Origin: Candidatus Limnocylindria bacterium
GTDB taxonomy: Bacteria; Chloroflexota; Limnocylindria; QHBO01
Direction: 5' to 3'
NCBI GenBank assembly: GCA_035759945.1
Contig: DASTTX010000102.1
Location: 2,027-66,026 of the forward strand
DNA: 64,000 nucleotides
Position 1 is the stretch's first letter; each line of letters begins with the position of its first letter. The notes under the pieces were generated by a model. The model ran no database searches. It saw nothing but the letters and a program-made list of their open reading frames with translations, and was not told the DNA's origin. A program made the translations under genes and the position numbers. Below are positions 1 to 17,946 of the stretch, piece by piece.

Positions 1-98
1 CGCTTCGAGGCAAGGCGGCGCATCAGGCTGAAGGCGTACAGCGCCAGGCCGCCGATGATCACGCCGTAGGCCGCGATGACGTAGCCCGCGTCGGTCAT
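1..98 (-). CDS. ccmD: Heme exporter protein CcmD, cut off by the window start
   Basis: Minus-strand ATG at 98 overlaps the ccmC stop (ATGA). It translates to MTDAGYVIAAYGVIIGGLALYAFSLMRRL..., a short hydrophobic peptide typical of CcmD sitting directly downstream of ccmC. Confidence 0.55.
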   Translation of the reverse strand, partial: MTDAGYVIAAYGVIIGGLALYAFSLMRRLASK

Positions 99-811
99 CG
101 GGCGACCTCCGCCGTCTCGTGCCGGCTCATGAGCCGCTCGACGCGTGCCGCCTCCTCGCGCTCGACCTCGAGGCGGGCGAGCTGATAACGACGGATCATC
201 AGGTAGACCCAGGCCAGCGTGAAGGCCGCCAGCATGCCGAGCAGGGTGCCGACGAAGACCATCGGCGCGGCAGGGTTCAGCACCCGATCCGGCGAGCCGA
301 TGGTCGCCGTCTGGTGCAGGCCACGCCACCACTCGACGCTGAAGTGGACGATCGGGATGTCGACGGCGGCCACGATGCCGACGATCGCGGCACGCGTCGC
401 GCGACGCTCGGGGTCATCGGTCAGGTGGCGCAGCAGCAGGTAGCCGACGTACAGCGCCAGCAGGAGCGCCGTCGTGGTGAGGCGCGGATCCTCCCACTGC
501 CACATGACGCCCCACACCGGGTCGCCCCACATCATGCCGCCCCAGATCGCAAAGGCCGTGAAGACCACGCCGATCTCGGCGGCCGACAGCGCAACCGCGT
601 CGAAGCGCATGTCCCGCTTCCAGAGCCAGCCGATGCCGGCCGCGGCGGTGACGCCGAACGACAGGTAGCCCAGCCACGCCGATGCGACGTGCGGGTACAT
701 GATTCGCTGGGCATCGCCCTGGTTGAGATCGGCCGGGACGACGAACAGCGCAACGAGGACCATGGCTGCCACGGCGATGAGCGCCACCGCGCCCAGGATG
801 CGGGTCTTCAT
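95..811 (-). CDS. ccmC: Heme exporter protein CcmC (cytochrome c-type biogenesis)
   Basis: 238 aa polytopic membrane protein with a tryptophan-rich WGxxMWGDPVWGVMWQWEDPRL (WWD) motif. It lies in a ccmA-B-C-D order with overlapping stop and start codons. Confidence 0.85.
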   Translation of the reverse strand: MKTRILGAVALIAVAAMVLVALFVVPADLNQGDAQRIMYPHVASAWLGYLSFGVTAAAGIGWLWKRDMRFDAVALSAAEIGVVFTAFAIWGGMMWGDPVWGVMWQWEDPRLTTTALLLALYVGYLLLRHLTDDPERRATRAAIVGIVAAVDIPIVHFSVEWWRGLHQTATIGSPDRVLNPAAPMVFVGTLLGMLAAFTLAWVYLMIRRYQLARLEVEREEAARVERLMSRHETAEVAR

Positions 812-1500
812 CAGTCCTCCAGCAGGTAGCCGTACGTGGCGGCACCGGCGACGAGCATGATCACGTCGTACGCGACCAGCAGCTGCAGCCAGGCGCCGAG
901 CTCACCGAACGGGTCGCCGGACAGCGCCGCGGCCGTGGCCTTGACGGCGCCGAGCAGGAGTGGCGCCAGGACCGGCAGCATGAGCAGCGGCAGCATCACC
1001 TCGCGCGCCCGCAGCCGCACGGTCACGCCGGCGTAGAAGGTGCCGACTGCCGCGATGCCGACCGCCCCGAGCACCACCGTGGCGACGAGCGGCAGCACCG
1101 CGCCCGCCACGTCCACCGCGAAGAGGATGCCGACCGCGCCGAGCACGATGAGGCCCAGGACCAGCATCACGACGAAGCCGCCGACGGCCTTGCCGGCGTA
1201 GATCGCGCGGCGCGTGATCGGGTAGAGGGCTAGCTGCTCGAGCGCGCCGTCGTCGGTCTCGAGCAGGTGGAGCCGATTGACTGCCAGCACACCGGCAAAG
1301 ACGAGCGCCAGCCACAGGAGGCCCGGTGCGGCGTCCGCCAGTCGCTGCGCGTCCGGCCCGAGGGCGAAGCCGAACAGCAGCAGGACCACGGCCGCGAAGA
1401 ACAGGGTGCTCACGGCGGCATGCCGTCCACGCAGCTCGGCCAGCGCATCCTTTCGCGCGATGGCGAGGGCCAGCGACGCTTCGTGCCGAAGCGCGCTCAT
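811..1500 (-). CDS. ccmB: Heme exporter permease CcmB
   Basis: 229 aa hydrophobic protein with 6 TM helices, between ccmA and ccmC. TGATG overlap with ccmC and ATGA overlap with ccmA. Confidence 0.8.
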   Translation of the reverse strand: MSALRHEASLALAIARKDALAELRGRHAAVSTLFFAAVVLLLFGFALGPDAQRLADAAPGLLWLALVFAGVLAVNRLHLLETDDGALEQLALYPITRRAIYAGKAVGGFVVMLVLGLIVLGAVGILFAVDVAGAVLPLVATVVLGAVGIAAVGTFYAGVTVRLRAREVMLPLLMLPVLAPLLLGAVKATAAALSGDPFGELGAWLQLLVAYDVIMLVAGAATYGYLLED

Positions 1501-2261
1501 CGGGCAACCACCGCGGGGCGCCGCGTCGCCGGCGGCGTCGGTGGCGTACTGCTGACTCCGTCACCGGAGACGTCGGCCACCAGGCCACGCTCCAGGACCA
1601 CGCGTCCATCCAGGAACGGCTCCAGGCGCTCGGTCGCGTGCGAGGCGATCAGCACCGTCACGCCCACATCCCTCCATGCGCCCAGCAGCGCCTCGATCAG
1701 TCCCATGCCGTCCTCGTCCAGTGCGGCGAGCGGCTCGTCCAGCAGGACGAGCGATGCGCTTCCGAGAAGGATGCGGCCCAGCGCCAGCCGCTTGCGCATG
1801 CCGGCCGAGAAGTCGCGCACGCGATCGGCCGACCGCTCCAGCAGGCCGACGTCCGACAGCGCCCGTTCGACGCGGGCATCGCGGTCTGGCGTGTCCAGCA
1901 GGGTGGCGGCGAAGGCGAGGTTCTCGCGCGCCGTGAGGTCGTCGTACAGGCCGGTGCCGTGCGAGAGGTACGCGACGCGCTCACGGACGCGGTCCGCGTC
2001 GCGGCCGAGGTCGATGCCGTCGACTGCCGCAGACCCATACGAGGCTCTGATGGCGGTGGCGAGGATGCGCATCAGGGTCGTCTTGCCGGCGCCATTCGGC
2101 CCGAGCAGCGCGATCGTCCGGCCGGCCGTCACCTGCAGCGATACGCCGGCGAGCGCGGGGCTGCCAGCGAAGAGGCGGGCGAGGTCGGTGGTGACCACCG
2201 CCGGAGGTCGGGTGTCGTGAGCCCCGAGGGAGCGGGGCGACACGTAGATGGTCTGCGGCAT
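1497..2261 (-). CDS. ccmA: Heme exporter ABC ATPase CcmA (the real start is probably the internal GTG near 2198)
   Basis: Walker A GPNGAGKTTLMR, an ABC signature-like SAGMRKRLAL, and Walker B LLLDEP. The CcmA N-terminus aligns with ...DLARLF, which suggests the GTG at 2198 is the true start. Confidence 0.8.
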   Translation of the reverse strand: MPQTIYVSPRSLGAHDTRPPAVVTTDLARLFAGSPALAGVSLQVTAGRTIALLGPNGAGKTTLMRILATAIRASYGSAAVDGIDLGRDADRVRERVAYLSHGTGLYDDLTARENLAFAATLLDTPDRDARVERALSDVGLLERSADRVRDFSAGMRKRLALGRILLGSASLVLLDEPLAALDEDGMGLIEALLGAWRDVGVTVLIASHATERLEPFLDGRVVLERGLVADVSGDGVSSTPPTPPATRRPAVVAR

Positions 2262-2406
2262 GCTCGACGCTGGGGCGAAGATGAGTGGGCCACAGCACTA
2301 TGCGGGCGGCATCGGAGGGCGTCAAATGAGGTGAAGGGTCGTAACCATGCTCGTATGAGGCGACGAAGACCCCGACTCTCGCATCCACAAAGGAGCCCTC
2401 GACCAC

Positions 2407-2859
2407 ATGCACCGATCCGCCGCGCTCATCGGAATCCTGGCTCTCGTGCTGGCCGCCTGTGCCTCGCCTGCGGCCGCGCCATCGGCGACCGAGCCGCCGA
2501 CGCCATCCGCGACCGAGGCCGCCACGCCGTCGGCCAGTCCCAGCGCCGAGGAGAGCGAGTCCGCCGAGCCGTCCGAGGAGGCGACCGCGGAGGAGGTCCG
2601 CGTCAGGCTCGAGTCGTCGAACTTCGACCCGTCCGAGCTGACCATCACCGCCGGCACGACGGTGCTCTTCCTCAATGCCGACAGCTACACGCACACCGTG
2701 ACCGAGGGAACCGGCGGGCAGGCGGTGGATGACCCGATCGTCGATCGCGAGATCGCCCAGAACCGCAGCGTACGCGTCACGTTCGACGAGCCGGGCACGT
2801 ACGACATCACCTGCAAGATCCATCCATCCATGCAGCTGACCGTCACGGTCGAAGGCTGA
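2407..2859 (+). CDS. Blue-copper (cupredoxin, plastocyanin/amicyanin-like) lipoprotein
   Basis: Lipobox LAAC signal, then a Pro/Thr/Ser-rich linker, then a C-terminal cupredoxin domain with type-1 Cu ligands H(TVTEG)...C-K-I-H-P-S-M. An AAAGGAG RBS precedes the start. Confidence 0.8.
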   Translation: MHRSAALIGILALVLAACASPAAAPSATEPPTPSATEAATPSASPSAEESESAEPSEEATAEEVRVRLESSNFDPSELTITAGTTVLFLNADSYTHTVTEGTGGQAVDDPIVDREIAQNRSVRVTFDEPGTYDITCKIHPSMQLTVTVEG

Positions 2860-2876: not shown

Positions 2877-3263
2877 GTGCACCGATCCCGACCCCTGGCG
2901 ATCCTGGTCCTGGTACTGCTCCTGGCAGCGTGCAGCAACAACGCCGCGAGCTCGGCCCCGGCAGCCGATGGCGGCGGCGCGGCAACCGACGACGGCAGCA
3001 GCGGTGGCGGCGAGACCGTCTCGCTCGCCGGCTTCGCCTTCTCGCCGTCGGAGCTGACCATCCCGGCCGGCACGACCGTGACCTTCACCGATACGGCCAA
3101 CCACACCGTCACCGAGGGCACTGATGGCGAGGCGGTCGACGACCCGATCGTCGACGAGGACGGCGGCAGCGACATCGAGGTCACCTTCGACGAGCCGGGG
3201 ACCTACAACATCACCTGCAAGATCCACCCGGACATGAACATGACGATCACGGTGGAGGGCTGA
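2877..3263 (+). CDS. Blue-copper (cupredoxin) lipoprotein, paralog of the preceding gene
   Basis: Lipobox LAAC, a Gly/Asp-rich linker, and an equivalent Cu-ligand pattern (NHTVTEG...CKIHPDM) in a domain nearly identical to the upstream gene. GTG start with a GAGGAGG RBS. Confidence 0.75.
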   Translation: MHRSRPLAILVLVLLLAACSNNAASSAPAADGGGAATDDGSSGGGETVSLAGFAFSPSELTIPAGTTVTFTDTANHTVTEGTDGEAVDDPIVDEDGGSDIEVTFDEPGTYNITCKIHPDMNMTITVEG

Positions 3264-3322: not shown

Positions 3323-3700
3323 ATGGACGCCGGGCTCTCCCCCACCGCCTCCGGAGCGAATCGATCGCGCGCCGCCCGCCGCGAGGCCGCGCAGCGCTCG
3401 GAATGCGCGGCAACGGCCGCGCTGAACGTGCTCGGCCAGAAGTGGGTGATGCGCATCATCCGCGTCCTCGGTGACCGCACCCAGCGCTTCTGCGAGCTGC
3501 AGGACGCGCTCGGCGGGGCCAACTCGGCCACGCTGTCGCAGCGCCTGAAGATGCTCGAGGACGAGGGGCTCATCGAGCGTCGCGCCATCAGCGCGGTGCC
3601 GCCCTGGGTCGAGTACTCGCTGACGACCAAGGGCGCCGACCTGCGCGGCGCGATCGCCGGGATCGACCGCTGGGCGGATCGCTGGGCCTCCACGCAGTGA
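3323..3700 (+). CDS. HxlR-family transcriptional regulator
   Basis: Winged-helix HxlR pattern (LGQKWVMRIIRVLGD..RFCELQ...LSQRLKMLEDEGLIERR..VPPWVEYSLT). Confidence 0.8.
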   Translation: MDAGLSPTASGANRSRAARREAAQRSECAATAALNVLGQKWVMRIIRVLGDRTQRFCELQDALGGANSATLSQRLKMLEDEGLIERRAISAVPPWVEYSLTTKGADLRGAIAGIDRWADRWASTQ

Positions 3701-4185
3701 GCCACCCGATCGCCGAGGAGCGCCCGGTCGTGCACGGCGATGCGCTCAACGCGCTCCGTGCCGAGATCGCCGAGGAGCCCGATCCGTCCGCCGCGGCGCA
3801 GCGCGCGGTCGACATGCTCCACGACCGCTTCGGCCATTACGACTGGGTCGGCATCTACTGGGTCGACGGCTCGGACCTGGTGCTCGGGCCATGGGTCGGC
3901 CCGCAGGCAACCGAGCACACCCGCATCCCGATCGGGACCGGCGTGTGCGGCGCGGCCGCCGCCTCCGGGACGACCGAGATCGTGCCCGACGTCAACGCCG
4001 ACCCGCGCTATCTCGCCTGCTTCGCCAGCACCAGGAGCGAGATCGTGGTCCCGATCTTCGACGGCGGCGAGGTCATCGGCGAGATCGACATCGACGGCTC
4101 GGATCACGACGCCTTCGACGACATGGATGCCCGCTTCCTCGAAGAGGTCGCCGCCCTGGTCGCGCCGCTGCGACCGCGGTCGTAA
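3697..4185 (+). CDS. GAF-domain protein of the free methionine-(R)-sulfoxide reductase (fRMsr) family
   Basis: About 160 aa. Motifs YDWVGIYWV...LVLGPWVG...GTGVCG...YLACF..SEIVVPI...GEIDIDG match the fRMsr/GAF family. The start overlaps the HxlR stop. Confidence 0.65.
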   Translation: MSHPIAEERPVVHGDALNALRAEIAEEPDPSAAAQRAVDMLHDRFGHYDWVGIYWVDGSDLVLGPWVGPQATEHTRIPIGTGVCGAAAASGTTEIVPDVNADPRYLACFASTRSEIVVPIFDGGEVIGEIDIDGSDHDAFDDMDARFLEEVAALVAPLRPRS

Positions 4186-4209
4186 CCACGCACGTACCGC
4201 ATCGGTGAG

Positions 4210-4722
4210 ATGTCCACCGGTCCGGGTCCGTTCGAGAAGGTCTACGACGAGCACGTCGTCGGCATCTATCGGTTCATCTACGCGCGCGTCGGCAACCATC
4301 CTGATGCGGAGGACCTGACGGCGCAGGTGTTCGTGCGCGCCGTCGAGCAGCTCGACACGAGCCGCGAGCCCGGTCAGATCGCCGCGTGGCTGTACCGGGT
4401 CGCGCACAACGCGACCGCCGACTACTGGCGCGCGTTCTACCGGCTGCCGCTGGTCGGGACCGATCATGTGGCGCCCGGCTGGGAGCCGGCCGACGAGACC
4501 AGGCCGGCCGCCGATCCCGACGAGCGCAGCGCCGTGCGCGTGCAGGCACTGCTGCGGCGGCTGCCGGATCATTATCGGCGCGTGCTCGAGCTCCGCTTCC
4601 TGGAACGCCTGAGCGTCGCCGAGACCGCGACGGCCATGGGGATCAGCAACGGCAATGCCCGCGTGCTGCAGTACCGCGCGCTGCGGCGTGCGGCCCTTCT
4701 GGGAGAGGCGAGCGATGGCTGA
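4210..4722 (+). CDS. ECF-type RNA polymerase sigma-70 factor
   Basis: Region 2 (VVGIYRFIYARVGNHPDAEDLTAQVF) and a region 4 HTH (LSVAETATAMGISNGNARVLQYRALRR). 170 aa. Confidence 0.85.
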   Translation: MSTGPGPFEKVYDEHVVGIYRFIYARVGNHPDAEDLTAQVFVRAVEQLDTSREPGQIAAWLYRVAHNATADYWRAFYRLPLVGTDHVAPGWEPADETRPAADPDERSAVRVQALLRRLPDHYRRVLELRFLERLSVAETATAMGISNGNARVLQYRALRRAALLGEASDG

Positions 4723-5509
4723 CGACGAGCGACCCGCCGACGACGCGGCCGACCGCTTCGACACCTACCTCGAGGCGCTGCTCGGCGAGGGCCGTCCTTC
4801 GCCCGAGGCCGTGGGCGACCGCGACGAGGCCGAGATGGCACGCATGGCGGCCGAGCTCGCCGCCAGCGTTCGCGCGGCGACCACACCTGACCCGGCCTTC
4901 GTCGAGCAGCTGCGCCTTCGCATGCGCCAGGCCGACGCGGGCATCGCCTCCGTGCAGCGGCCGCCGCCGGTGCGCGAGCAGCCGCGTCCGGCCGGCTCGG
5001 GCCGCTGGCGCCTGTCGCGCCGCCAGGTGCTCCAGGCCGGGCTCGGGGCCGCGGCCGGCATGGCCGCCGGCGTCATCGGAGCGTCGCTGGGCAGCCGCAC
5101 GCCGCAGCGGCAGATCGGCGATGACGACCAGCTGGTGGCCGGTGACGGCTTCTGGACCGAGGTCGCCAGCGTTTCGGACGTGCCGCCCGGCAGCGCCGTC
5201 CGCTTCAGCACGGCGGCCTTCGATGGCTTCGTGGTCAACGACGCGGGCACCATTCGGGCGCTGTCATCGGTCTGCACCCACATGGGCTGCACGCTCCACT
5301 TCCGGCCCGACTGGACGGACTTCAGGTGCCCGTGCCACGGGGCCAGCTTCGACCTGGCCGGGCGCCTGGCCAACGGCCGCAGTGCGTGGAGGAAGGACGG
5401 AGCCTACCCCGGGGACGCGAAGGCCTACCCCATCGAGCTGCCGGACCTCGTTCGCCCGCGGGTCAAGGTCGAGGACGACGCCGTGTGGGTGTGGACCGCC
5501 CAGGCCTGA
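4715..5509 (+). CDS. Anti-sigma-factor-like membrane protein with a C-terminal Rieske [2Fe-2S] domain
   Basis: ATG at 4715 overlaps the sigma-factor stop (ATGGCTGA). The cytoplasmic N-terminus is anti-sigma-like and is followed by an RRQVLQAGLGAAAGMAAG Tat-like/TM segment. The C-terminus carries Rieske motifs CTHMGC...CPCHGA. Confidence 0.7.
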   Translation: MADDERPADDAADRFDTYLEALLGEGRPSPEAVGDRDEAEMARMAAELAASVRAATTPDPAFVEQLRLRMRQADAGIASVQRPPPVREQPRPAGSGRWRLSRRQVLQAGLGAAAGMAAGVIGASLGSRTPQRQIGDDDQLVAGDGFWTEVASVSDVPPGSAVRFSTAAFDGFVVNDAGTIRALSSVCTHMGCTLHFRPDWTDFRCPCHGASFDLAGRLANGRSAWRKDGAYPGDAKAYPIELPDLVRPRVKVEDDAVWVWTAQA

Positions 5510-5519
5510 CGCCGACGTC

Positions 5520-5741
5520 CTACAGGCGAATGACCTCGAACAGGTAGCCGATCAGGTAGGGCACGGCCACGATGACCAGGATCACCGCCAGGACGATCCC
5601 GGCGTAGATGAACAGGGTCAGGTCGGGTGGCTCGGCTCGCTCCGGCGGTGGCGTGAGGCGCCGTGCCAGGTGCGTCGGCCGCTGTGGGCGGCGATGCTCG
5701 TACTTGCGTTGCTCGCCGACCTCGGGCAGCTTCAGCCGCAC
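5520..5741 (-). CDS. Hypothetical small membrane protein (single C-terminal TM)
   Basis: 73 aa ORF with a hydrophobic C-terminus (LFIYAGIVLAVILVIVAVPYLIGYLF), lying between two real genes. I found no homology evidence. Confidence 0.25.
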   Translation of the reverse strand: MRLKLPEVGEQRKYEHRRPQRPTHLARRLTPPPERAEPPDLTLFIYAGIVLAVILVIVAVPYLIGYLFEVIRL

Positions 5742-5757: not shown

Positions 5758-8139
5758 TCATGCGTCGTGGCCGCGCTCCACGGAGTCGACCAGCTCGCGC
5801 AGGCGACGCAGGCGCTCCGGCCGATCGGCGACGTAGCGCTCGATGGCGGCGATCATGTGCTCCGGCCCGAGATGCGCTTCGTCCAGGACCTCGTCCACCG
5901 TCCCGCCGGTCCGCCAGCGGTCGTCCCAATCGGAGCTGAGCGAGTACTCCTCGGCGATCGGTCCATCCACCCAGTCGCGCATCAGCTTGAAGGCACGATT
6001 GGTGATCGCCATGCCGTCCCATCGGTCCGCGGGTGAGCAGATCTCGTCGCGATACGCGGCGTCCTGCATCCGGAACAGCTGCGGGCTGATAGCGGCCACG
6101 ATGCGGACGTTGAGGCCGCGCCGGTCGAGCTCCGGCAGGATCTTGACGAGGTTGGCGGTCGACATCGTGCCCTGCACGTACACGGTGCCGGCTGACGGCC
6201 GGTCTGGCAAAGGACGTCGTAGGACGTACGCGCCGCGCGCCGCGGCGAAATGCGAGTCCATCCCCAGCGCCGGGCGGTCGGGAATCTCGACCGCCGGCCG
6301 GGTGAGGTGCAGCGCGACGATCGGCACGTCGGTGGCCAGCGCCGCCGCAAGCAGCACGGGGACCTCGTTGTGCTCCCACGGGTGCAGGTCGATGACGTGG
6401 CCCTCCGGGAAGAGCTGGGTCACGCCGGTGGCGAAGATGCCGAAGTGGGTGCGCGAGTCCTCGGCCGTCTCCGGACCGGAGTGGCCGGCGACCCAGATGA
6501 CCTTGCCGACCTTGAGCTCGGTGTCCTGCGCCAGCTGGCTGAACAGGCGCATGGGTCCGTACTTGAGGTAGCTGAACGACCCGTACGTGGAGCACGCCGT
6601 CCAGAAGCCGTTGAATGCGTGGAACGGGTCGTCGGCCAGGTTGACGGTCGCAATGCCGACGCTCACGCCGGCATTGGTGAACTCGGTGATCTGCTGCGGC
6701 AGCAGCGCGCCCCGTGGGTTCGTGTCGCGGTTGTACCAGCCCCAGCCGGGCAGGTCCCCGAAGTCCTTGGCGAAGCCGGCGATGTTCGTCGACTCGGCCA
6801 GGTCGGCGGAGCAGGCGATGACCAGCGGACGGTCGTACTCGGCGCGCGCGGTGGCGTTGACCCAGGACCCCCACGTCGCCAGGGCGGCGCGGTTCGGCGC
6901 CTTCTCGCCGGGCTTCTTCCACATCGAGTCGGGGTACGCGGTCACGTCGGTGAAGCGCGGGTCGTCGAAGATCTCGGTGCCGCGTCCTCCCAGGTGGAAG
7001 CCCTCGACGCGCGTCGGCACGGACTCGCCCAGCTGCACCAGCCGGTCGCTGATGGCGTCGACGACCGCCGGGTTGGCGCGCAGCACCCCCATGGCGACCT
7101 CGAAGTTCGCGCGCGCCTGCGCCTGGAGCTCGTCGGGGTCGGCCGGCGGCGGCTGGTCGACGCCCACGTACTCGACGCCGTGGCGCGCCATGAACTGCCG
7201 GCGCACCGCCCAGAACGGCTCCGAGTTCATCGCGTGCGGCGAGCCGTGGCTGGCGTTGTCGTACTTGCCGTAGCCACGGCCCTTGCGCGTCTTGAACCAT
7301 GCCATCGACGGCACCCGCTCGGGGTTGTCGCCCCGGGCCGCCTCGAGGACCGCGCGAGTGACGGCGCCCCACTCCGAGCCGTCCTCGGTGCCGGTGATGC
7401 GCCAGCCATACGGCTCGAACCACTCGGCCGGGGTGCCGTGCACCACCTCGTGGATGGCTACGTCGTCGATGCCGTAGTCGTTCCAGTCGATCAGGAAGAC
7501 GAGATTCGACAGGCCCAGGCCCCAGGCCGTATTGCGTGTCTCGTGGCTGGCGCCCGGCGTCAGGCCGCCCTCGCCCTCGACGGCGAAGACCTTGACCTCC
7601 TCGGCGCCGGCCAGCTTGAGGGCCACCGCCTCACCTGCCGCGGGCGGCATGCCATGCCCGGACGGCCCGGTGTTGAACTTGAGGAAGAGGGTCTTGCCCT
7701 CCATCTCGGCGTGACCCGGCAGCCCGCCCCGACGACGCAACTTGAGGAGGTCCTCCCAGGTCAGTGCCCAGCGGCCGTCATCGGGGAAGGCGAAACGCGC
7801 GTCACCGTCACGCTCGGCACGGGCGCGCAGCGTCTCGTTGAGGACCGCCAACGTGGTGTACACGAGCGGCACGGTGTGCCCGGCCGACAGCACGAAGCGG
7901 TCGCCGAACGGCAGCCACGGCCGCCGGATGTCCCAGCGCATGGCGCCCGACAGCAGCAGCGACAGGAAGAGGTGGACCTTCGAGCGCGAGCCGCCCGGGT
8001 GCCCGGACTGCCGGTAGTTCAGGGTGAGGTCGATCGCCTCGTCGATGACGTCCTTGACGAGCTCCCAGTCGTCGAACGAGTCCGATGCCCGCGCGAAGAG
8101 CTCCTCGACGCCCTGGACCGAGGGGCGCGTGGCCGTCAT
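5758..8139 (-). CDS. Transketolase-family thiamine-diphosphate enzyme (long form, 794 aa)
   Basis: The provided ORF extends to 8583, but the likely start is the ATG at 8139, which overlaps the upstream aminotransferase stop (ATGA). The TPP-binding N-terminal domain carries SGHPGG and GEGGL motifs and is followed by pyrimidine-binding and C-terminal domains. Confidence 0.7.
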   Translation of the reverse strand: MTATRPSVQGVEELFARASDSFDDWELVKDVIDEAIDLTLNYRQSGHPGGSRSKVHLFLSLLLSGAMRWDIRRPWLPFGDRFVLSAGHTVPLVYTTLAVLNETLRARAERDGDARFAFPDDGRWALTWEDLLKLRRRGGLPGHAEMEGKTLFLKFNTGPSGHGMPPAAGEAVALKLAGAEEVKVFAVEGEGGLTPGASHETRNTAWGLGLSNLVFLIDWNDYGIDDVAIHEVVHGTPAEWFEPYGWRITGTEDGSEWGAVTRAVLEAARGDNPERVPSMAWFKTRKGRGYGKYDNASHGSPHAMNSEPFWAVRRQFMARHGVEYVGVDQPPPADPDELQAQARANFEVAMGVLRANPAVVDAISDRLVQLGESVPTRVEGFHLGGRGTEIFDDPRFTDVTAYPDSMWKKPGEKAPNRAALATWGSWVNATARAEYDRPLVIACSADLAESTNIAGFAKDFGDLPGWGWYNRDTNPRGALLPQQITEFTNAGVSVGIATVNLADDPFHAFNGFWTACSTYGSFSYLKYGPMRLFSQLAQDTELKVGKVIWVAGHSGPETAEDSRTHFGIFATGVTQLFPEGHVIDLHPWEHNEVPVLLAAALATDVPIVALHLTRPAVEIPDRPALGMDSHFAAARGAYVLRRPLPDRPSAGTVYVQGTMSTANLVKILPELDRRGLNVRIVAAISPQLFRMQDAAYRDEICSPADRWDGMAITNRAFKLMRDWVDGPIAEEYSLSSDWDDRWRTGGTVDEVLDEAHLGPEHMIAAIERYVADRPERLRRLRELVDSVERGHDA

Positions 8140-12549: not shown

Positions 12550-13137
12550 TCAGCGGGCGGCGAGCTCCGAGCTGCGCGCGGCGGCCTCGGCGGCCTCGCG
12601 CCGGGTGATGCGACGGAACTCGAAGTAGAGGTAGACGCAGGCCGCGGCGCCGATCCCTGCCGCAATCATGCCGAAGGCCACCGACGTGAGGGTGATGCGG
12701 AGCGGCCAGAAGGACCCGCCGGCGAGATTGAACGCCATGATCGGGATGATCAGGAGCACGGTGAGCAGGTAGTTGAGCATGACGAAGATGCGCACCGCCG
12801 CCCAGCCGAAGCCACGCCGGCCGCGGGCGGCCTGGACCACCAGCGCCAGCACGATGATGGCGGTGAAGGTCCCCATCCCCGCGCCGTTGGCGATGAGGAA
12901 GCCGACGTCCTCGCTGAAGCGCAGGAACGGCAGCTCCACCGTGACGAGGTAGTAGATGTAGTTCGACACGTAGAACAGCACGAAGTACATGAACAGGAAC
13001 AGCGGCACCGCCTTGAGCACCGCCACGAGCCACGTCTCGTGGCCGAACAGGAACCAGCTCATGAAGTCGTCCGACCAGCTGAGCAGGCGCGTGAACCCGC
13101 CGCGCCGCCGATAGACCGGATACGTCGTGGTGCTCAA
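12550..13137 (-). CDS. Polytopic membrane protein, the last gene of the bc-complex operon
   Basis: 195 aa with 4-5 predicted TM helices. Its TTG start overlaps the cytochrome c stop (TTGA). Function unknown. Confidence 0.45.
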   Translation of the reverse strand: MSTTTYPVYRRRGGFTRLLSWSDDFMSWFLFGHETWLVAVLKAVPLFLFMYFVLFYVSNYIYYLVTVELPFLRFSEDVGFLIANGAGMGTFTAIIVLALVVQAARGRRGFGWAAVRIFVMLNYLLTVLLIIPIMAFNLAGGSFWPLRITLTSVAFGMIAAGIGAAACVYLYFEFRRITRREAAEAAARSSELAAR

Positions 13138-13925
13138 TGGTCGCCCTCCAGCAGGAAGGTGATCAGGGCCTGGAGCGCCGACTCGCTCAGGCTGCTCTCG
13201 GGGTGGGCCGGCATGCCGGACGCGCCGTAGTTGCCGGCCGAGTCACGAATCCACTGCTCCAGGAAGGCGCGCGGATCGGCGTCGTAGTCGGTCTCCATCT
13301 GATCGGCGCCGGTCGGGGTGGCGAAGCCGCTGAGGTCGACCAGGCCCGAGCCGATGCCGGTGATGTTGGGTCCGGCCGTGGTTCCCGACAGGTCCTCGGC
13401 ATGGCAGGTGACGCATCCGGCGGACGCGAACACATCGGCACCTGCCTCAACCGTGTTCTCGACCTCCTCCACCGGCTGCTCGCCGGCCTCCGCAGCCCAG
13501 CTTTCGACCAGCGCCACGACCGCGTCGATCTGCTGCTCGTTGAGGGGCCCACCGACCTCCGAGCTCCAGGCCGGCATCGGCGAGTTGACGTTGCCGGACA
13601 CCACCACGCCGCCGTAGCTGACGGCCAGGTGCACGTAGTTCGGATTCACCTTGAGCTTGTCGAAGATGCTGCGGCTGTGGAGGTTCGGCCCGACCACCTG
13701 CGCCCCGGGCTCGCCACCGGTGCCATCGGCGCCGTGGCATCGCGCGCAGCCCACCGAAGCCGGCTCTGCAGGGTTGTCGGAGAAGATGACCTCGCCGAAC
13801 TCGAGCAGCTCGTCCTCCTGCGCGACGGCGACCGATTCACGACGGCTGTCATCGGTCACCCAGTAGAGCATGGTGAAGGCGGCGAGGGCCGTGATCAGCA
13901 CGACGCCGAGCGTCTTGAGTCGCAT
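13134..13925 (-). CDS. Diheme c-type cytochrome subunit of the bc complex
   Basis: N-terminal TM anchor and two CxxCH haem-binding motifs (CARCH and CVTCH). Confidence 0.85.
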   Translation of the reverse strand: MRLKTLGVVLITALAAFTMLYWVTDDSRRESVAVAQEDELLEFGEVIFSDNPAEPASVGCARCHGADGTGGEPGAQVVGPNLHSRSIFDKLKVNPNYVHLAVSYGGVVVSGNVNSPMPAWSSEVGGPLNEQQIDAVVALVESWAAEAGEQPVEEVENTVEAGADVFASAGCVTCHAEDLSGTTAGPNITGIGSGLVDLSGFATPTGADQMETDYDADPRAFLEQWIRDSAGNYGASGMPAHPESSLSESALQALITFLLEGDH

Positions 13926-13928
13926 CGC

Positions 13929-14609
13929 CTAGCCGACGCAGTGCTCGGTGATGTCGCTGGCGGTCCGCTTGTCGAATGTCACCACCGTCGGCGGCGGGCC
14001 GCTGATCACCTGGCGCGTGTCGATGATGTAGACGCCGTTCTCGACGAGCACCTCGAAGCGGTCCATGCCGCGCGGCGCCGGGCCATCCCGCTTCTCGCCG
14101 ATGACCGTGTACTTCGAGCCGTGGCACAGGCACTCGAACCACTCGCTCTTGTCGCACAGCTGCGGCACCTGGCAGCCCAGGTGCGGGCACTTGCGCCACA
14201 GCGCCATGACCGAGCGATCCTCGGGCGGGATGTCCGGGTCGACGTCGGCGCCCGGATCCGGCACCGGCAGGGTCACGTCCGACGTCACCTCGCCATTGGA
14301 GTTGCCGGCCACGCGCGCCTTGGCGGCAGGCACGTTGACGAAGAACAGGTTCGCCTGGTTGTAGACGAACGGCAGCCCGTTCTGCCAATCGGGCGCCAGG
14401 TTATTGATGTCGTCGGCGCTCCCCAGCGTGATCTGCGATCCGAGACCCTCGGTCAGGTTCGGCCACAGGAAGGCGAGTGTGCCGCCCAGGAACTCGAGCG
14501 AGAGGAGGCCGACGCCCACGCCCAGCACGCGGCGCATGAAGCTGCGTCGGGTGATCTCGCCGGTGGGCGGCCCGTGGACCGCACCGTAGGAAGCGTGCTG
14601 CTGTGTCAT
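13929..14609 (-). CDS. Rieske [2Fe-2S] iron-sulfur subunit of the cytochrome bc complex (QcrA/PetC-like)
   Basis: Start MTQQHA (ATG at 14609, ATGA overlap with subunit IV). Tat motif RRSFMRRVLGVGVG. Rieske boxes CPHLGC...CLCHGS. Confidence 0.85.
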   Translation of the reverse strand: MTQQHASYGAVHGPPTGEITRRSFMRRVLGVGVGLLSLEFLGGTLAFLWPNLTEGLGSQITLGSADDINNLAPDWQNGLPFVYNQANLFFVNVPAAKARVAGNSNGEVTSDVTLPVPDPGADVDPDIPPEDRSVMALWRKCPHLGCQVPQLCDKSEWFECLCHGSKYTVIGEKRDGPAPRGMDRFEVLVENGVYIIDTRQVISGPPPTVVTFDKRTASDITEHCVG

Positions 14610-15223
14610 AGGTTGAAGTACAGCCCATCCCACGGCCAGACCCAGTTCCAGCCCGGGCCGCGGAAGAAGGAGCCGATGAAGGTCACGATCAGGCCGCCGA
14701 CCATGATGCACAGGAAGAAGATCCAGATCATCTTCCGGTCACGCACGGCCTTGTAGGGCGTTCGGTCGACGTACGGGATGATGAGCAGGCCGCCGAGATA
14801 CACCGGGATGATCAGCACGCCGGCCACGGTCGGGTTGAAGTAGCTGAGCAGCTCCTGGAGGCCGAGGAAGTACCACGGCGCCTTCGCCACGTGCGGCGTG
14901 ACGGACGGGTTGGCCATCTCCTCCAGCGGCGCGGTGATGAAGACACTCGTCACCACCAGCAGCGCGGTGATGAGCATGGCCATCAGGAACTCGGCGCGCA
15001 GCAGGTGCGGCCAGGTCAGAACCGTCTCGTCGGGGCGCTTGTCGACACGGACCATCGACTCCTGCTTGACGTAGGCCAGGAGGCGGAAGCGCTCGGTTCC
15101 CGGCACGCCGGGCGGTCCGGGAAGCTTGGGTCCGACGCCGGGCGCAACGATCGGCGCGCGCTCGGGCGCCTGGGTCGGGACGTTCTTGTCGGCGGTGGCG
15201 TTCGGTCGCTTCTCGATCGTCAT
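14606..15223 (-). CDS. Cytochrome b6c complex subunit IV (C-terminal half of a split cytochrome b)
   Basis: PEWY-like APWYFLGLQELL motif and 3 TM helices. Lies immediately downstream of the b6-like gene. Confidence 0.8.
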   Translation of the reverse strand: MTIEKRPNATADKNVPTQAPERAPIVAPGVGPKLPGPPGVPGTERFRLLAYVKQESMVRVDKRPDETVLTWPHLLRAEFLMAMLITALLVVTSVFITAPLEEMANPSVTPHVAKAPWYFLGLQELLSYFNPTVAGVLIIPVYLGGLLIIPYVDRTPYKAVRDRKMIWIFFLCIMVGGLIVTFIGSFFRGPGWNWVWPWDGLYFNL

Positions 15224-15238
15224 CGGTCCAGCCTCACC

Positions 15239-15976
15239 TTACACCGGGCCACTGATGCCGCCGTCCTTCCGGATCCGCCAGAAGTGGACGATCATGAAGA
15301 TGGCGGCGATGAGCGGGAAGAAGATCACGTGCGCCACGTAGAAGCGCAGCAGCGTGCCCTGGCCGACCTGGATCCCGCCCAGCATGAAGAAGGCAGACTC
15401 GTTGCTGAGCAGCGGCGCGTAGGTGGCCATCTGGGTGCCGACGGTGATGGCCCAGAACGCGATCTGGTCCCACGGCAGCAGGTAGCCGGTGAAGCTCAGC
15501 GCCAGCGTGAAGAACAGCAGCAGCACGCCGATGACCCAGTTGAACTCCCGCGGCGGCTTGTACGCGCCGTGATAGAAGACGCGGATCATGTGCAGGAAGA
15601 CGGTGAGGACCATGAGGTGCGCGCCCCAGCGGTGCATGTTGCGCACCAGCGAGCCGAACGCGACCGATGCCTCGATGGCCTGGATGTCCTGGTAGGCACG
15701 GCTGATCGACGGCACGTAGAAGAACATCAGGTACAGGCCCGTCACGGTCAGCACCAGGAACAGGAAGAAACTGATCCCGCCCAGGCAGAACGTGTAGGTG
15801 TAGCGCACGGCGTGGCGCTTGACCCGCACCGGGTGCAGGTGCAGGAACACGTTGTTCATGACCGCCAGGGCGCGGGTGCGGCTGGTGGACGGGTACGGCT
15901 GGCGGAACAGGCTGCGCCACGCGGCCGACTCCTTCACCCAGCGCACGACCGGGTTGCCGCCGTTGCCGTTGCTCAT
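15239..15976 (-). CDS. Cytochrome b6 (N-terminal haem-binding half of a split cytochrome b)
   Basis: Four-TM b-type cytochrome N-domain with conserved haem-ligand His residues in helices B and D. The ATG overlaps the stop of the upstream oxidoreductase (ATGA). Confidence 0.85.
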
Positions 15977-17946
15977 CGGTCCACGACCGCGCCGGCCTGC
16001 TGGCCGACCTGTCCGAGCACGTTGTCCTTGTAGCTCTCCAACAGAACCTTCCCGTCAGGCGTGAACCGCTCGAGCTCGAGCCGGTCCATGGTGATGCAGT
16101 TGGTGGGGCAGCGCTCGACGCAGAGGTTGCAGCGGATGCAGCGCTCCTCGTCGATGATCATGGCGATCCCGCGCGGCCACGACTGGAAGAACTCCTGCTC
16201 CGGGTCGTCGCCGCCGACCTGCGCCTTGTCGATCATGTAGATCACGCCCTCGGGGCAGACGTCGGCGCAGAGTCCGCACAGGATACAGCGGGGGCCGTCG
16301 ATGTTGATGTTGTGGTTGCACTGGAGGCAGCGGCTGCCCTCGTCGATGGCGCTGCGCGTGTCGTAGCCGACCTCGACCAGGCTGGTGAAGTCACGCCGCA
16401 GCTCCGGCGGCGCCATCGGGATCTCCTGGCGGCGGGTGGCCTCGTAGAAGCGCGGCATGTCGTGATCGAGGCTCTGGGTGATGGTGGCGCGGTTGATGAC
16501 CGGCAGCTCCTCGAGCTCTTCGCCACGCAGCCCGGCGAGCCAGCGGTCGACGCTGCGCGCTGCCCGCCGCCCGAGGCCGGCGGCCTCGATGATCGTGGCG
16601 GGGCCCGTCACGAAGTCACCCACGGCGAAGATGCCGTCCTGGTTCGTGCCGAAGGTGTCGGCGTTGATGGCGACATTGCCGCGCTTGAACTCGAACTTCA
16701 GGTCGTTCAGCGAGTTGCCCTGCGCATCCTTCGGCGTCGTGCCGTTCAGCGGCTCGGTGCGCCAGGCGGACAGGGAGCCGCCCTCGACCACGGTCCGCGT
16801 ATCGGTCACGCCGACGTGCCGGTTGAGCTTGGCGCCGAACTCCCCGAGGACATTGTTGTCCGATGCCTGGCTGGTGCACGGGATGACCATGTCGCAGGGG
16901 ACGGTGAACTCGCTGCCCGGGATCGGCTCGGCGCTGCGACGGCCGGTCGCGTCCGGCGGCCCGAGGCGGGTGCGCACGAACTTCATGCCGCTGACGTGCC
17001 CGTTCTCGTCGGCGAGGACCTCGACCGGCGAGGCGAAGTACTCGAACTGGACGCCCTCGAAGCGCGTCTCGTGCTGCTCCTCCTCGTCGACCACCATCTC
17101 GTCCGGGCCGCGGCGGTAGAGGATCGTGCTCGTCTTGGCCCCCAGCCGAAGCGCGGTTCGCGAGGAGTCCATGGCGGTGTAGCCGCCGCCGATGACGACG
17201 ACGTGCTCGCCGACCCATTGCGACTGCCCGAGGTTGGCGCGCTTCAGGAAGTCGACGCCGTAGATGACGCCGTCGAGCTCCTCGCCGGGGACGTTCATGG
17301 CGACCGGGTACATGCATCCGGTGGCGACCACGACCGCGTCATGCTTCGCGCGCAGCTGCTCCAGGGTGATGTCGCGACCGATCTCGACGTTATAGTGGAA
17401 CTGCACGCCGTGCTTGGCGACCCAGTTCACGTCCAGCTCGATGACGTCGCGCGGGAGCCGGAAGGCCGGGACGCCGATGAGCGTCGTGCCGCCGCCCGAG
17501 GGCAGCGCCTCGTAGATGTGGACCTCATGGCCCCAGCTGCCGAGCTCCTTGGCGGCCGCCAGGCCGGCGGGGCCGGCACCGATGACGGCCACGCTCCGCC
17601 CGGTGGGCGCCTGCACCACCACGTTGTCGGGCATGTTGTTGCCGTAGTGCCAGTCGACGAGGAAACGCTTCATGGCGCGGATCGCCAGCGGCTTGTCGAT
17701 GTCGGCGCGGCGGCAGGCCTTTTCGCACGGCGCGCTGCACACGTAGCCGCAGATGGCGGCCACCGGGTTCGGGTCGCGGGCGAGGATGTAGCCCTCCTCG
17801 AAGCGCCCTTCGGCGGCCAGCATCAGGTAGCCCCGGCAATTGGTGTTGACCGGGCAGCCTTCCTGGCACTCGATGTTGCACTGAAGCCAGTCGACACCGA
17901 CCTCGGCCGTCTGGAACCTCAGGGGAATCGCGGTATCTGAGATCAC
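15973..17946 (-). CDS. Glutamate-synthase-beta (GltD)-like NAD(P)H:FAD oxidoreductase with N-terminal Fe-S motifs and a C-terminal 2x[4Fe-4S] ferredoxin domain
   Basis: 657 aa. N-terminal Cys clusters ([10 protein letters not shown] and [13 protein letters not shown]). Two Rossmann dinucleotide motifs ([14 protein letters not shown] and [12 protein letters not shown]). C-terminal [12 protein letters not shown] and [12 protein letters not shown]. Confidence 0.8.

Follow-up and report, generated by a model that had tools for sequence, protein, structure and literature searches.

Extracytoplasmic function (ECF) sigma factors and their anti-sigma partners are a major route of bacterial transmembrane signalling, and the signal is not known for most of these pairs. 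ECF anti-sigma factors sequester the sigma factor through an N-terminal cytoplasmic domain, with the domain on the outside responding. The stretch analysed here (the window, 64 kb in full length, with a G+C content of 70.6%) has its closest relatives among metagenome-assembled genomes of Candidatus Limnocylindria (Chloroflexota), and carries an ECF sigma gene that overlaps the gene of a 264-residue protein ending in a Rieske [2Fe-2S] domain. An original prediction, made from the sequence of the window, had placed this Rieske-domain protein in the position of an anti-sigma factor. The analysis presented here, which draws on genomic context and on protein architecture, makes it probable that the protein is the cognate anti-sigma factor of the sigma factor, or at least a partner that regulates it, and is of a previously undescribed type; we put the probability of this reading at roughly 0.65.

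RsbN, the anti-sigma factor of BldN in Streptomyces venezuelae (PDB 6DXO), is built of a three-helix part, a membrane segment at about residue 118, and a domain outside the membrane; it bears no sequence likeness to other anti-sigma factors and has been reported as confined to Streptomyces (PMC6101532). The sigma factor of the window is closest to BldN among solved structures (6dxo_A, E=2.2e-21), and its partner is a predicted single-pass protein with a three-helix cytoplasmic part of ~90 residues, the last helix being long, and a membrane segment near residue 105. In class III anti-sigma factors, those of the RsbN type, regions 2 and 4 of the sigma factor clamp helix 3 between them, helices 1 and 2 lie on region 4, and flexible linkers join the three. 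Three helices are predicted here and the partner sigma factor is BldN-like, but a profile search of the PDB detected no sequence similarity between the N-terminal domain and the RsbN chain, and the domain is at most a candidate for class III. Furthermore, the outside domain is here a Rieske iron–sulfur domain, predicted to be exported by the twin-arginine translocation (Tat) pathway, the genes overlap, and the organisms are Chloroflexota.

The class I anti-sigma factors (RseA, RsiW, ChrR, and RslA; ZAS and non-ZAS) are encoded directly downstream of the sigma gene and coupled to it, with the N-terminal sigma-binding part in the cytoplasm and the C-terminal domain receiving the signal, an arrangement that the present pair appears to share. 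The conserved helix P-x-P-x-F-V-x-x-L of the N-terminal domain is presumably similar to the helix that ends many class I domains. In contrast to class I (ASDI/ZAS), however, the N-terminal domain has no profile match to the class (neither zf-HC2 nor RskA), no HxxxCxxC or any other Cys/His motif, no match in fold, and three predicted helices in place of four.

A precedent for the control of a sigma factor by an iron–sulfur centre is given by RsmA (Streptomyces SigM) and RshA (M. tuberculosis SigH), two proteins that depend on a [2Fe-2S] cluster for their action as anti-sigma factors (PMC3427169). The clusters of these proteins are Cys-ligated, cytoplasmic, and housed in the sigma-binding or kinase-like module, whereas the centre here is of the His2Cys2 Rieske kind and lies in a separate domain that is predicted to be exported. 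The Rieske subunits of the bc1 and b6f complexes (PetC and QcrA), together with small soluble Rieske proteins, share with the present protein the Rieske fold, the CxHxGC...CxCH boxes with their disulfide cysteines, and, by prediction, the twin-arginine signal-anchor, but the present protein has an additional predicted cytoplasmic domain of ~100 residues and an insertion at the GPAP loop, its gene lies apart from that of cytochrome b, and its scores fall short of the cut-offs for these subunits. Rieske proteins receive their cofactor in the cytoplasm before Tat exports them in the folded state, and their anchor is left uncleaved. Literature searches on Rieske with anti-sigma or ECF turned up no account of an anti-sigma sensor made of a Rieske domain, or of an exported iron–sulfur domain of any kind, and, as the original prediction had supposed, no paper describing such a fusion; additionally, Rieske is not mentioned in the main text of the 2021 ECF classification paper.

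The sigma factor and its overlapping partner

The case for an anti-sigma role stems from the conservation of the pairing across lineages, the overlapping codons, the orthology of the sigma factors, the single-pass architecture, the conservation of the N-terminal domain, the likeness to BldN and to the anatomy of RsbN, the lack of another conserved candidate nearby, the separate Rieske subunit of the bc operon, and the element found upstream of the sigma gene. The sigma protein matches Sigma70_r2 (PF04542; E=1.3e-12, 47.8 bits) and Sigma70_r4_2 (PF08281; E=1.9e-11, 43.8 bits) above cut-off, and TIGR02937 with 68.8 bits against a cut-off of 42.9, with the family profile scan yielding no match to region 3; regions 2 and 4, a length of 170 residues, and a score above the family cut-off place it in ECF group 4. 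Its region 4 is basic. The best NCBIfam match is the BldN equivalog TIGR02952, at 107.9 bits and below the cut-off of 206.45, and by sequence the protein is related to BldN, yet is no member of that equivalog.

The overlap between the sigma stop and the downstream start, already noted in the original prediction, spans 8 nucleotides (ATGGCTGA) and puts the start of the downstream gene at 4715 rather than 4716. When overlap length was tallied in 88 related loci, 8 nucleotides was found in 73 of them, which argues against chance; overlaps of 4, 10, 11, or 14 nucleotides occur in distant lineages, with gaps of 31–76 nucleotides elsewhere among the distant loci. By its sequence the overlap is one of translational coupling between the sigma and Rieske-protein genes. 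Of the alternative that the original prediction set against itself, a simple Rieske subunit whose gene overlaps by chance, the chance overlap is contradicted by this count, and the window has a separate, canonical Rieske gene in its cytochrome bc operon.

A scan of one genome per species gave 110 species encoding a relative, from which 80 loci were taken for the comparison of neighbourhoods, nearly all of them labelled Limnocylindria or Chloroflexota. The sigma gene lies directly upstream, on the same strand, in every Limnocylindria locus with enough flank (~80 species loci), however this pairing alone says little, because the whole neighbourhood is syntenic in Limnocylindria, running from the cupredoxin gene or genes through HxlR, GAF, sigma, Rieske, and a small convergent open reading frame (ORF) to a transketolase-like gene. 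The decisive comparison is with eight distant lineages (L085/86, L087, L088–90, L092, L093, L094, L095, and L096), whose Rieske proteins are ~31–35% identical to that of the window over the aligned region; a further locus, L091, was also compared. The neighbours are entirely different in L085/86, L087, L088–90, L092, L093, and L096, and partly different in L094 and L095, with an orthologous ECF sigma gene (40–47% identity) directly upstream in all eight. The orthologous sigma factors have a distinctive linker in common, and an unrelated ECF sigma factor in L088 is only 30% identical. As the pair persists in eight distant lineages whilst the other neighbours differ, the sigma factor is, on the sequences compared, the one invariant partner of the Rieske protein, and profiling across genomes comes out in favour of the predicted partnership in divergent Chloroflexota lineages. 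The single exception is L091, in which no sigma gene precedes the Rieske homologue and remnants of a DDE-transposase are found in its place (L091 1000–1830); this locus looks like a disrupted system.

The Rieske protein could instead be an output of the sigma factor, namely a Tat-exported, membrane-anchored electron carrier (for example the redox partner of a cupredoxin) that is merely co-transcribed, with an N-terminal domain that serves, for instance, as docking site for a partner in the cytoplasm or for a chaperone of cluster insertion or Tat proofreading. This is consistent with a complete Rieske domain of the high-potential bc type with disulfide cysteines, with cupredoxin genes nearby in three different arrangements, with arsenite-oxidase Rieske subunits among the matches (the NCBIfam name makes azurin-type cupredoxins their electron acceptors), and with an N-terminus that matches no anti-sigma family. 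However, the invariant partner is the sigma factor and not a cupredoxin, none of which is encoded near L085, L087, L093, or L096, the coupling through overlapping codons is a hallmark of sigma/anti-sigma pairs, and neither another regulator of the sigma factor nor another candidate anti-sigma gene is conserved near it in the loci compared. Moreover, an acidic helical domain of ~85 residues before the Tat motif is no known feature of Rieske carriers, the canonical one of this window having ~20 residues there. A role as output is for these reasons considered unlikely.

The topology predicted for the Rieske protein is that of a single-pass anti-sigma factor, with an acidic helical domain in the cytoplasm, a twin-arginine anchor, and an extracytoplasmic domain. 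Residues 1–85 carry a net charge of -8 (isoelectric point, pI, 4.3), and AlphaFold2, with a diverse alignment, places helices at residues 6–23, 36–54, and 60–81 with a mean predicted local distance difference test (pLDDT) score of 76. The motifs RF(D/E)xY(L/V)xAL, RP(S)P, DEAEMA, and PDPxF(V/I)xxLRxR(M/L) are conserved in this domain, and its conservation is about equal to that of the Rieske fold, which argues that it is no mere spacer. Residues 1–125, searched with HMMER against 1.84 billion representative proteins, found only 36 matches, with every full-length distant match tested carrying both the twin-arginine anchor and the Rieske domain. A search seeded from a distant member returned 109 proteins, mostly of 250–316 residues and all annotated as Rieske only, with Ktedonobacterales, Chloroflexota, and Limnocylindria among the source names; by sequence, the family appears confined to Chloroflexota.

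Of the Tat-like membrane segment in the original prediction (RWRLSRRQVLQAGLGAAAG), the motif and the position hold, with an invariant S/T-R-R standing before the sole hydrophobic segment of the 264-residue protein (residues 105–127, preceded by positive charges), whilst the profile scores fall short, at 17.7 bits for Pfam TAT_signal (PF10518; cut-off 22.7) and 14.0 for TIGR01409 (cut-off 16.7). The motif reads LSRRQVLQAG here, and its S-R-R is invariant in 43 diverse homologues.

Several results weigh against an anti-sigma role. The N-terminus had been called anti-sigma-like, however residues 1–100 match no Pfam, NCBIfam, or PDB family, and a Pfam scan of 19 diverse N-terminal sequences found no anti-sigma family (no zf-HC2 and no RskA). 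The profile built from these 19 sequences gave only chance matches in the PDB (TetR C-domains and designed coiled coils, E>0.6), and Foldseek with the N-terminal model gave no fold match (E>2). None of these searches thus brought out a likeness to anti-sigma domains of class I, II, or III. The mirror-tree partial correlations, of 0.34 between the sigma factor and the N-terminus, 0.55 between the sigma factor and the Rieske domain, and 0.44 between the sigma factor and the GAF protein encoded upstream, are not specific to the pair. Of the 50 inter-protein pairs that rank highest by mutual information with average product correction, 42 fall within residues 1–140, which hold 53% of the variable columns; many of these pairs lie in gap-rich tails, and the enrichment carries little weight. 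The two halves of the element found upstream of the sigma gene (described below) are spaced by 6–7 bp rather than 16–17, which is ~10 bp short of a canonical ECF promoter. Lastly, partners of the FecR type are also needed for the activity of their sigma factors, and the sign of the regulation could here be either negative or positive. The missing similarity does not exclude an anti-sigma role, because RsbN likewise resembled nothing known before its structure.

The Rieske domain and the cytochrome bc complex

The Rieske domain is complete, as had been predicted from its CTHMGC...CPCHG boxes, with PF00355 matching residues 147–222 (E=1e-13; 51.4 bits against a cut-off of 20.3). The boxes CTHMGC (C187, H189, and C192) and CPCHG (C205, C207, and H208) provide the ligands C187, H189, C205, and H208 and the bc-type disulfide cysteines C192 and C207, with the ligands conserved in all lineages and both ligands and disulfide cysteines conserved in the 43 diverse homologues. 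The best match in the PDB is 8hn2_A (E=1.6e-11), and the domain is modelled with a pLDDT above 90. Sigma-linked Rieske proteins are annotated in public databases as ‘cytochrome b6-f iron-sulfur subunit’ or ‘nitrite reductase/ring-hydroxylating ferredoxin subunit’, and these present annotations would mislead metabolic reconstructions of the Limnocylindria, which are abundant, uncultured bacteria of soil and freshwater.

The annotations bear on a further explanation, in which the cytochrome bc complex, encoded at a distance of 7.6 kb, would at times take up the protein as a PetC/QcrA isoform in place of its usual Rieske subunit, with the sigma factor timing the synthesis of this isoform. The best family matches are indeed Rieske subunits of b6f and bc1 complexes, in agreement with the public annotations, and several PetC isoforms exist in cyanobacteria. 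However, the scores for the subunit families of NCBIfam lie far under their cut-offs (NF010001, 41 against 154 bits; TIGR01416, 41 against 97; NF045928, 40 against 250; NF050121, 25 against 275), and the gene never adjoins cytochrome b in ~90 loci. The Rieske subunit of the bc operon has a short N-terminal tail (~20 residues) before its RR motif, the boxes CPHLGC...CLCHGS, and a GPAP loop, whereas the sigma-linked protein is 32% identical to it over only 44 residues and has an insertion in place of that loop. Since the bc operon has a canonical Rieske gene of its own, the sigma-linked protein is, as judged by sequence, not a subunit of the bc complex, and an exchangeable isoform is highly improbable. 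The bc operon itself has a split cytochrome b, and is preceded by a gene for a 657-residue protein with Fer4 and pyridine-nucleotide-disulfide oxidoreductase domains (region 13134–17946, minus strand).

The upstream element and the proposed switch

The element GTAAC-N6-CGTA occurs exactly twice in the window, against 0.07 matches expected from shuffles, once upstream of the sigma gene (GTAACCACGCACGTA) and once upstream of the first of two cupredoxin genes (GTAACCATGCTCGTA). Wherever the sequence upstream of the sigma gene is long enough, the element precedes this gene, as also in the distant lineages L085, L087, L088, and L092–L096, with the form GTAAC-N6-CGTA in Limnocylindria and L094–L096, TGTAAC-N7-CGTA in L085, L087, L088, and L093, and a close variant, TGTAAC-N7-GGTAT, in L092 (further positions are 4257 in L093, 4326 in L094, 4413 in L095, and 4286 in L096). 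The information is confined to the two half-sites, with the spacer and flanks varying freely. The copy at the cupredoxin operon is present in 43 distinct Limnocylindria loci, and a second copy in L085, on the opposite strand, faces a Lipoprotein_15 gene (5341(-)/5354(+)). L091 retains one copy at 1555 and another at 3536, the latter preceding a downstream cupredoxin gene (3558–4091).

The promoter consensus of BldN is CGTAAC-N16-CGTTGA (PMC2375139), and the promoter elements of ShbA and SigD are CGTAAC-N16-CGATGA and GTAAC-N17-18-CGAT (PMC12019637). The 5′ half of the present element equals the -35 element of BldN (CGTAAC), ShbA, and SigD, a further likeness to the RsbN–BldN system, and the 3′ half resembles the -10 box of ECF promoters (CGT), with a spacer of N6/7 and not N16. 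In Limnocylindria, the sigma start codon comes 9–13 nucleotides past CGTA, with Shine-Dalgarno-like bases between, and GTAAC can therefore not serve there as the -35 element of the sigma transcript. A canonical promoter with CGTAAC as the -35 element and the -10 element at N16 was considered and rejected, with no conserved element found at N14–18 downstream of GTAAC in the aligned loci, the implied transcription start in Limnocylindria falling inside the sigma coding sequence, and no alternative start codon existing there. The geometry of the motif, judged from these alignments, fits no canonical promoter of the sigma-70 family, and is the most surprising of the secondary findings.

In L093 an rpoN (sigma-54) gene is convergent to the Rieske gene (5927–7381, minus strand), and the geometry of the motif superficially recalls -24/-12 promoters. 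The element lacks the GG and GC dinucleotides that are essential to such promoters, and the proximity of rpoN is probably a coincidence.

The simplest reading is that the element is the target of the sigma factor itself, which would then be autoregulated, with the cupredoxins as members of its regulon; this assignment is provisional, because the spacing is unlike that of a canonical ECF promoter. The original prediction had suggested that the pair may regulate respiratory or metal homeostasis genes, and this finds support in the motif common to the upstream regions of the sigma gene and the cupredoxin operon, whilst the signal sensed stays conjectural.

Either half, GTAAC or CGTA, may act as the -10 element, and the unusual spacing may also mean that another DNA-binding component is involved. 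The Rieske protein might accordingly regulate the sigma factor positively or in both directions, as a FecR-like pro-sigma factor or tether, or its N-terminal domain might bind GTAAC-N6/7-CGTA in the manner of ToxR. Besides the sigma factor, the Rieske protein is the only protein common to all loci bearing the motif, and one N-terminal fragment (P0161) is labelled ‘FerR/FecR’ by the automatic annotation of the JGI. However, the 19 N-terminal sequences gave no helix-turn-helix or FecR match in Pfam, and the strongly acidic character of the domain (pI 4.3) is unfavourable for DNA binding, making positive or ToxR-like regulation quite improbable.

Under the anti-sigma reading, the 264-residue protein would acquire its [2Fe-2S] cluster in the cytoplasm, the folded Rieske domain would be exported by the Tat pathway, and the twin-arginine segment would escape cleavage and anchor the protein in the membrane, like that of the Rieske subunits of bc1 and b6f. 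The acidic three-helix domain would remain in the cytoplasm and sequester the sigma factor, which has a basic region 4, with the overlapping stop and start codons holding the sigma factor and the Rieske protein in fixed proportion. The holo-Rieske domain would keep the anti-sigma factor competent, and a change in the oxidation state or integrity of the cluster, possibly caused by oxidants, copper, iron shortage, or the redox poise of the cupredoxin pool, would inactivate or destabilise it and release the sigma factor. The released sigma factor would act on its own operon and on the genes of the lipoprotein cupredoxins that carry GTAAC-N6/7-CGTA. The physiological theme would be the state of extracytoplasmic electron transfer, or the metal or oxidative state, as suggested by the blue copper carriers, the methionine-sulfoxide reductase, and the HxlR regulator encoded nearby.

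The system is thus probably an ECF sigma factor with a single-pass anti-sigma factor whose sensor domain is of a new kind and whose sigma-binding domain had gone unrecognised. Any particular signal for the Rieske cluster, be it redox, iron, copper, or oxidants, is a matter of conjecture and is held with far less confidence than the anti-sigma role. The fuller proposal, that the exported Rieske centre is a redox or metal sensor and that the released sigma factor controls blue copper carriers through the compact element, with the -35-like and -10-like halves one helical turn too close and hence implying non-canonical promoter recognition or an extra DNA-binding step, is a tentative one and unlikely as a whole. 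An anti-sigma factor of the kind proposed, if real, would be the first case of which we are aware in which a Tat-exported iron–sulfur domain is the outside sensor of a transmembrane regulator, and would add a sigma-binding module that current profiles miss. The link to the cupredoxins suggests a switch for copper-based electron carriers, and the measurable redox and spectroscopic states of a Rieske [2Fe-2S] centre make the input of such a sensor accessible to ultraviolet-visible and electron paramagnetic resonance spectroscopy and to potentiometry.

Neighbouring genes and comparison loci

The features of the window are listed in Table 1. The proximity of the pair to two cupredoxin genes, to ccmABC-like genes, and to a bc operon, all named in the original prediction, is confirmed, the operon lying 7.6 kb downstream.

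Table 1. Coordinates of the sigma–Rieske pair, its upstream elements, and the neighbouring genes in the 64-kb window.
Feature	Coordinates	Strand	Basis or remark
ECF (group 4) sigma factor, 170 residues	4210–4722	+	Pfam, TIGR02937, PDB 6dxo_A
8-nucleotide overlap ATGGCTGA, sigma stop/Rieske-gene start	4715–4722	+	ATG 4715, TGA 4720–4722
Rieske-domain protein ORF, 264 residues	4715–5509	+	ATG 4715
Residues 1–85, acidic three-helix predicted cytoplasmic domain, candidate sigma-binding (anti-sigma) domain	4715–4969	+	AlphaFold2, conserved motifs, charge
Residues 100–125 (98–125 including the W-R-L lead), LSRRQVL and Ala/Gly-rich hydrophobic segment, predicted uncleaved Tat signal-anchor, N-terminus inside	5012–5089	+	TAT_signal, TIGR01409, conservation
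Residues 146–264, predicted extracytoplasmic Rieske [2Fe-2S] domain	5150–5506	+	PF00355, 8hn2_A, AlphaFold2
Motif copy 1 (GTAACCATGCTCGTA), GTAAC-N6-CGTA, 52 nucleotides upstream of the cupredoxin 1 start codon	2341–2355	+	exact match
Motif copy 2 (GTAACCACGCACGTA), 28 nucleotides upstream of the sigma ATG, its TAA being the stop codon of the GAF gene	4182–4196	+	exact match
ccmABC-like genes	95–2261	-	ccmA-like gene start at 2261
Cupredoxin 1, lipoprotein-type blue copper protein, candidate regulon member	2407–2859	+	Cupredoxin_1 E=2.2e-10, Copper-bind E=1.3e-8
Cupredoxin 2, paralogue, lipobox LAAC	2877–3263	+	Cupredoxin_1 E=1.5e-8
HxlR-family winged-helix regulator, stop overlapping the start of the next gene	3323–3700	+	Pfam HxlR E=2.6e-24
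Single-GAF protein, homologue of free methionine-(R)-sulfoxide reductase (fRMsr)	3697–4185	+	Pfam GAF E=1.4e-17; PDB 3mmh_A E=1.1e-28
Conserved 73-residue ORF with a hydrophobic stretch at the C-terminus, convergent to the Rieske gene	5520–5741	-	no Pfam match
Cytochrome bc operon	13134–15976	-	7.6 kb downstream of the Rieske-protein gene
Cytochrome b (PetB-like)	15239–15976	-	bc operon
Cytochrome b C-terminal/PetD-like protein	14606–15223	-	bc operon
Canonical Rieske subunit	13929–14711	-	bc operon
c-type cytochrome	13134–13925	-	bc operon

Both cupredoxins are lipoproteins by sequence (lipobox LAAC), with an amicyanin-like copper site of the form His...C-x2-H-x2-M, and homologues of them flank the sigma–Rieske pair in the unrelated contexts of L088 and L091. 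The HxlR gene is kept in the Limnocylindria cluster and absent from the distant loci. The GAF protein, which additionally matches YebR and YKL069W in the PDB, is encoded by a gene that travels with the sigma–Rieske pair in Limnocylindria and in L094 and L095, and is preceded by HxlR in the former and by MarR in the latter. Together these genes suggest a neighbourhood concerned with extracytoplasmic electron transfer, metal state, or oxidative stress, an association seen only in clusters of the Limnocylindria type. The 73-residue ORF, which lies between the Rieske gene and a gene for a 941-residue transketolase-like protein, is kept in Limnocylindria, has a form of 69 residues in L094 and L095, and is absent from L085, L087, L088, L093, and L096; it falls outside the core pair.

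Upstream of the first cupredoxin gene, GCGTCAAAT and CTATGCGG were considered as parts of the motif and rejected, the minus-strand reading being TTGACG-N17-CATAGT. This sequence (2297–2325, minus strand) lies ~35 nucleotides upstream of the divergent gene for a ccmA-like ABC ATPase (start at 2261), is conserved in Limnocylindria, where its plus-strand form is GCGTCAAAT ... CTATGCGG, and stands back-to-back with the cupredoxin copy of the motif. The ccmABC-like operon probably has its housekeeping promoter here.

Seven contigs among the comparison loci (L012, L017, L037, L043, L057, L071, and L074) are labelled Binatia, Steroidobacteraceae, Dormiibacterota, or Angelobacter and carry the Limnocylindria-type cluster with 64–81% protein identity and identical synteny, and are probably mis-binned Limnocylindria contigs rather than cases of horizontal transfer. 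Three contigs from long-read metagenome-assembled genomes (L033, L079, and L081) show apparent frameshifts or extended ORFs in the sigma or Rieske gene, and a 426-residue ‘fusion’ representative (P0141) contains long out-of-frame stretches; these are likely to be assembly errors and not natural fusions of a sigma factor with its anti-sigma factor.

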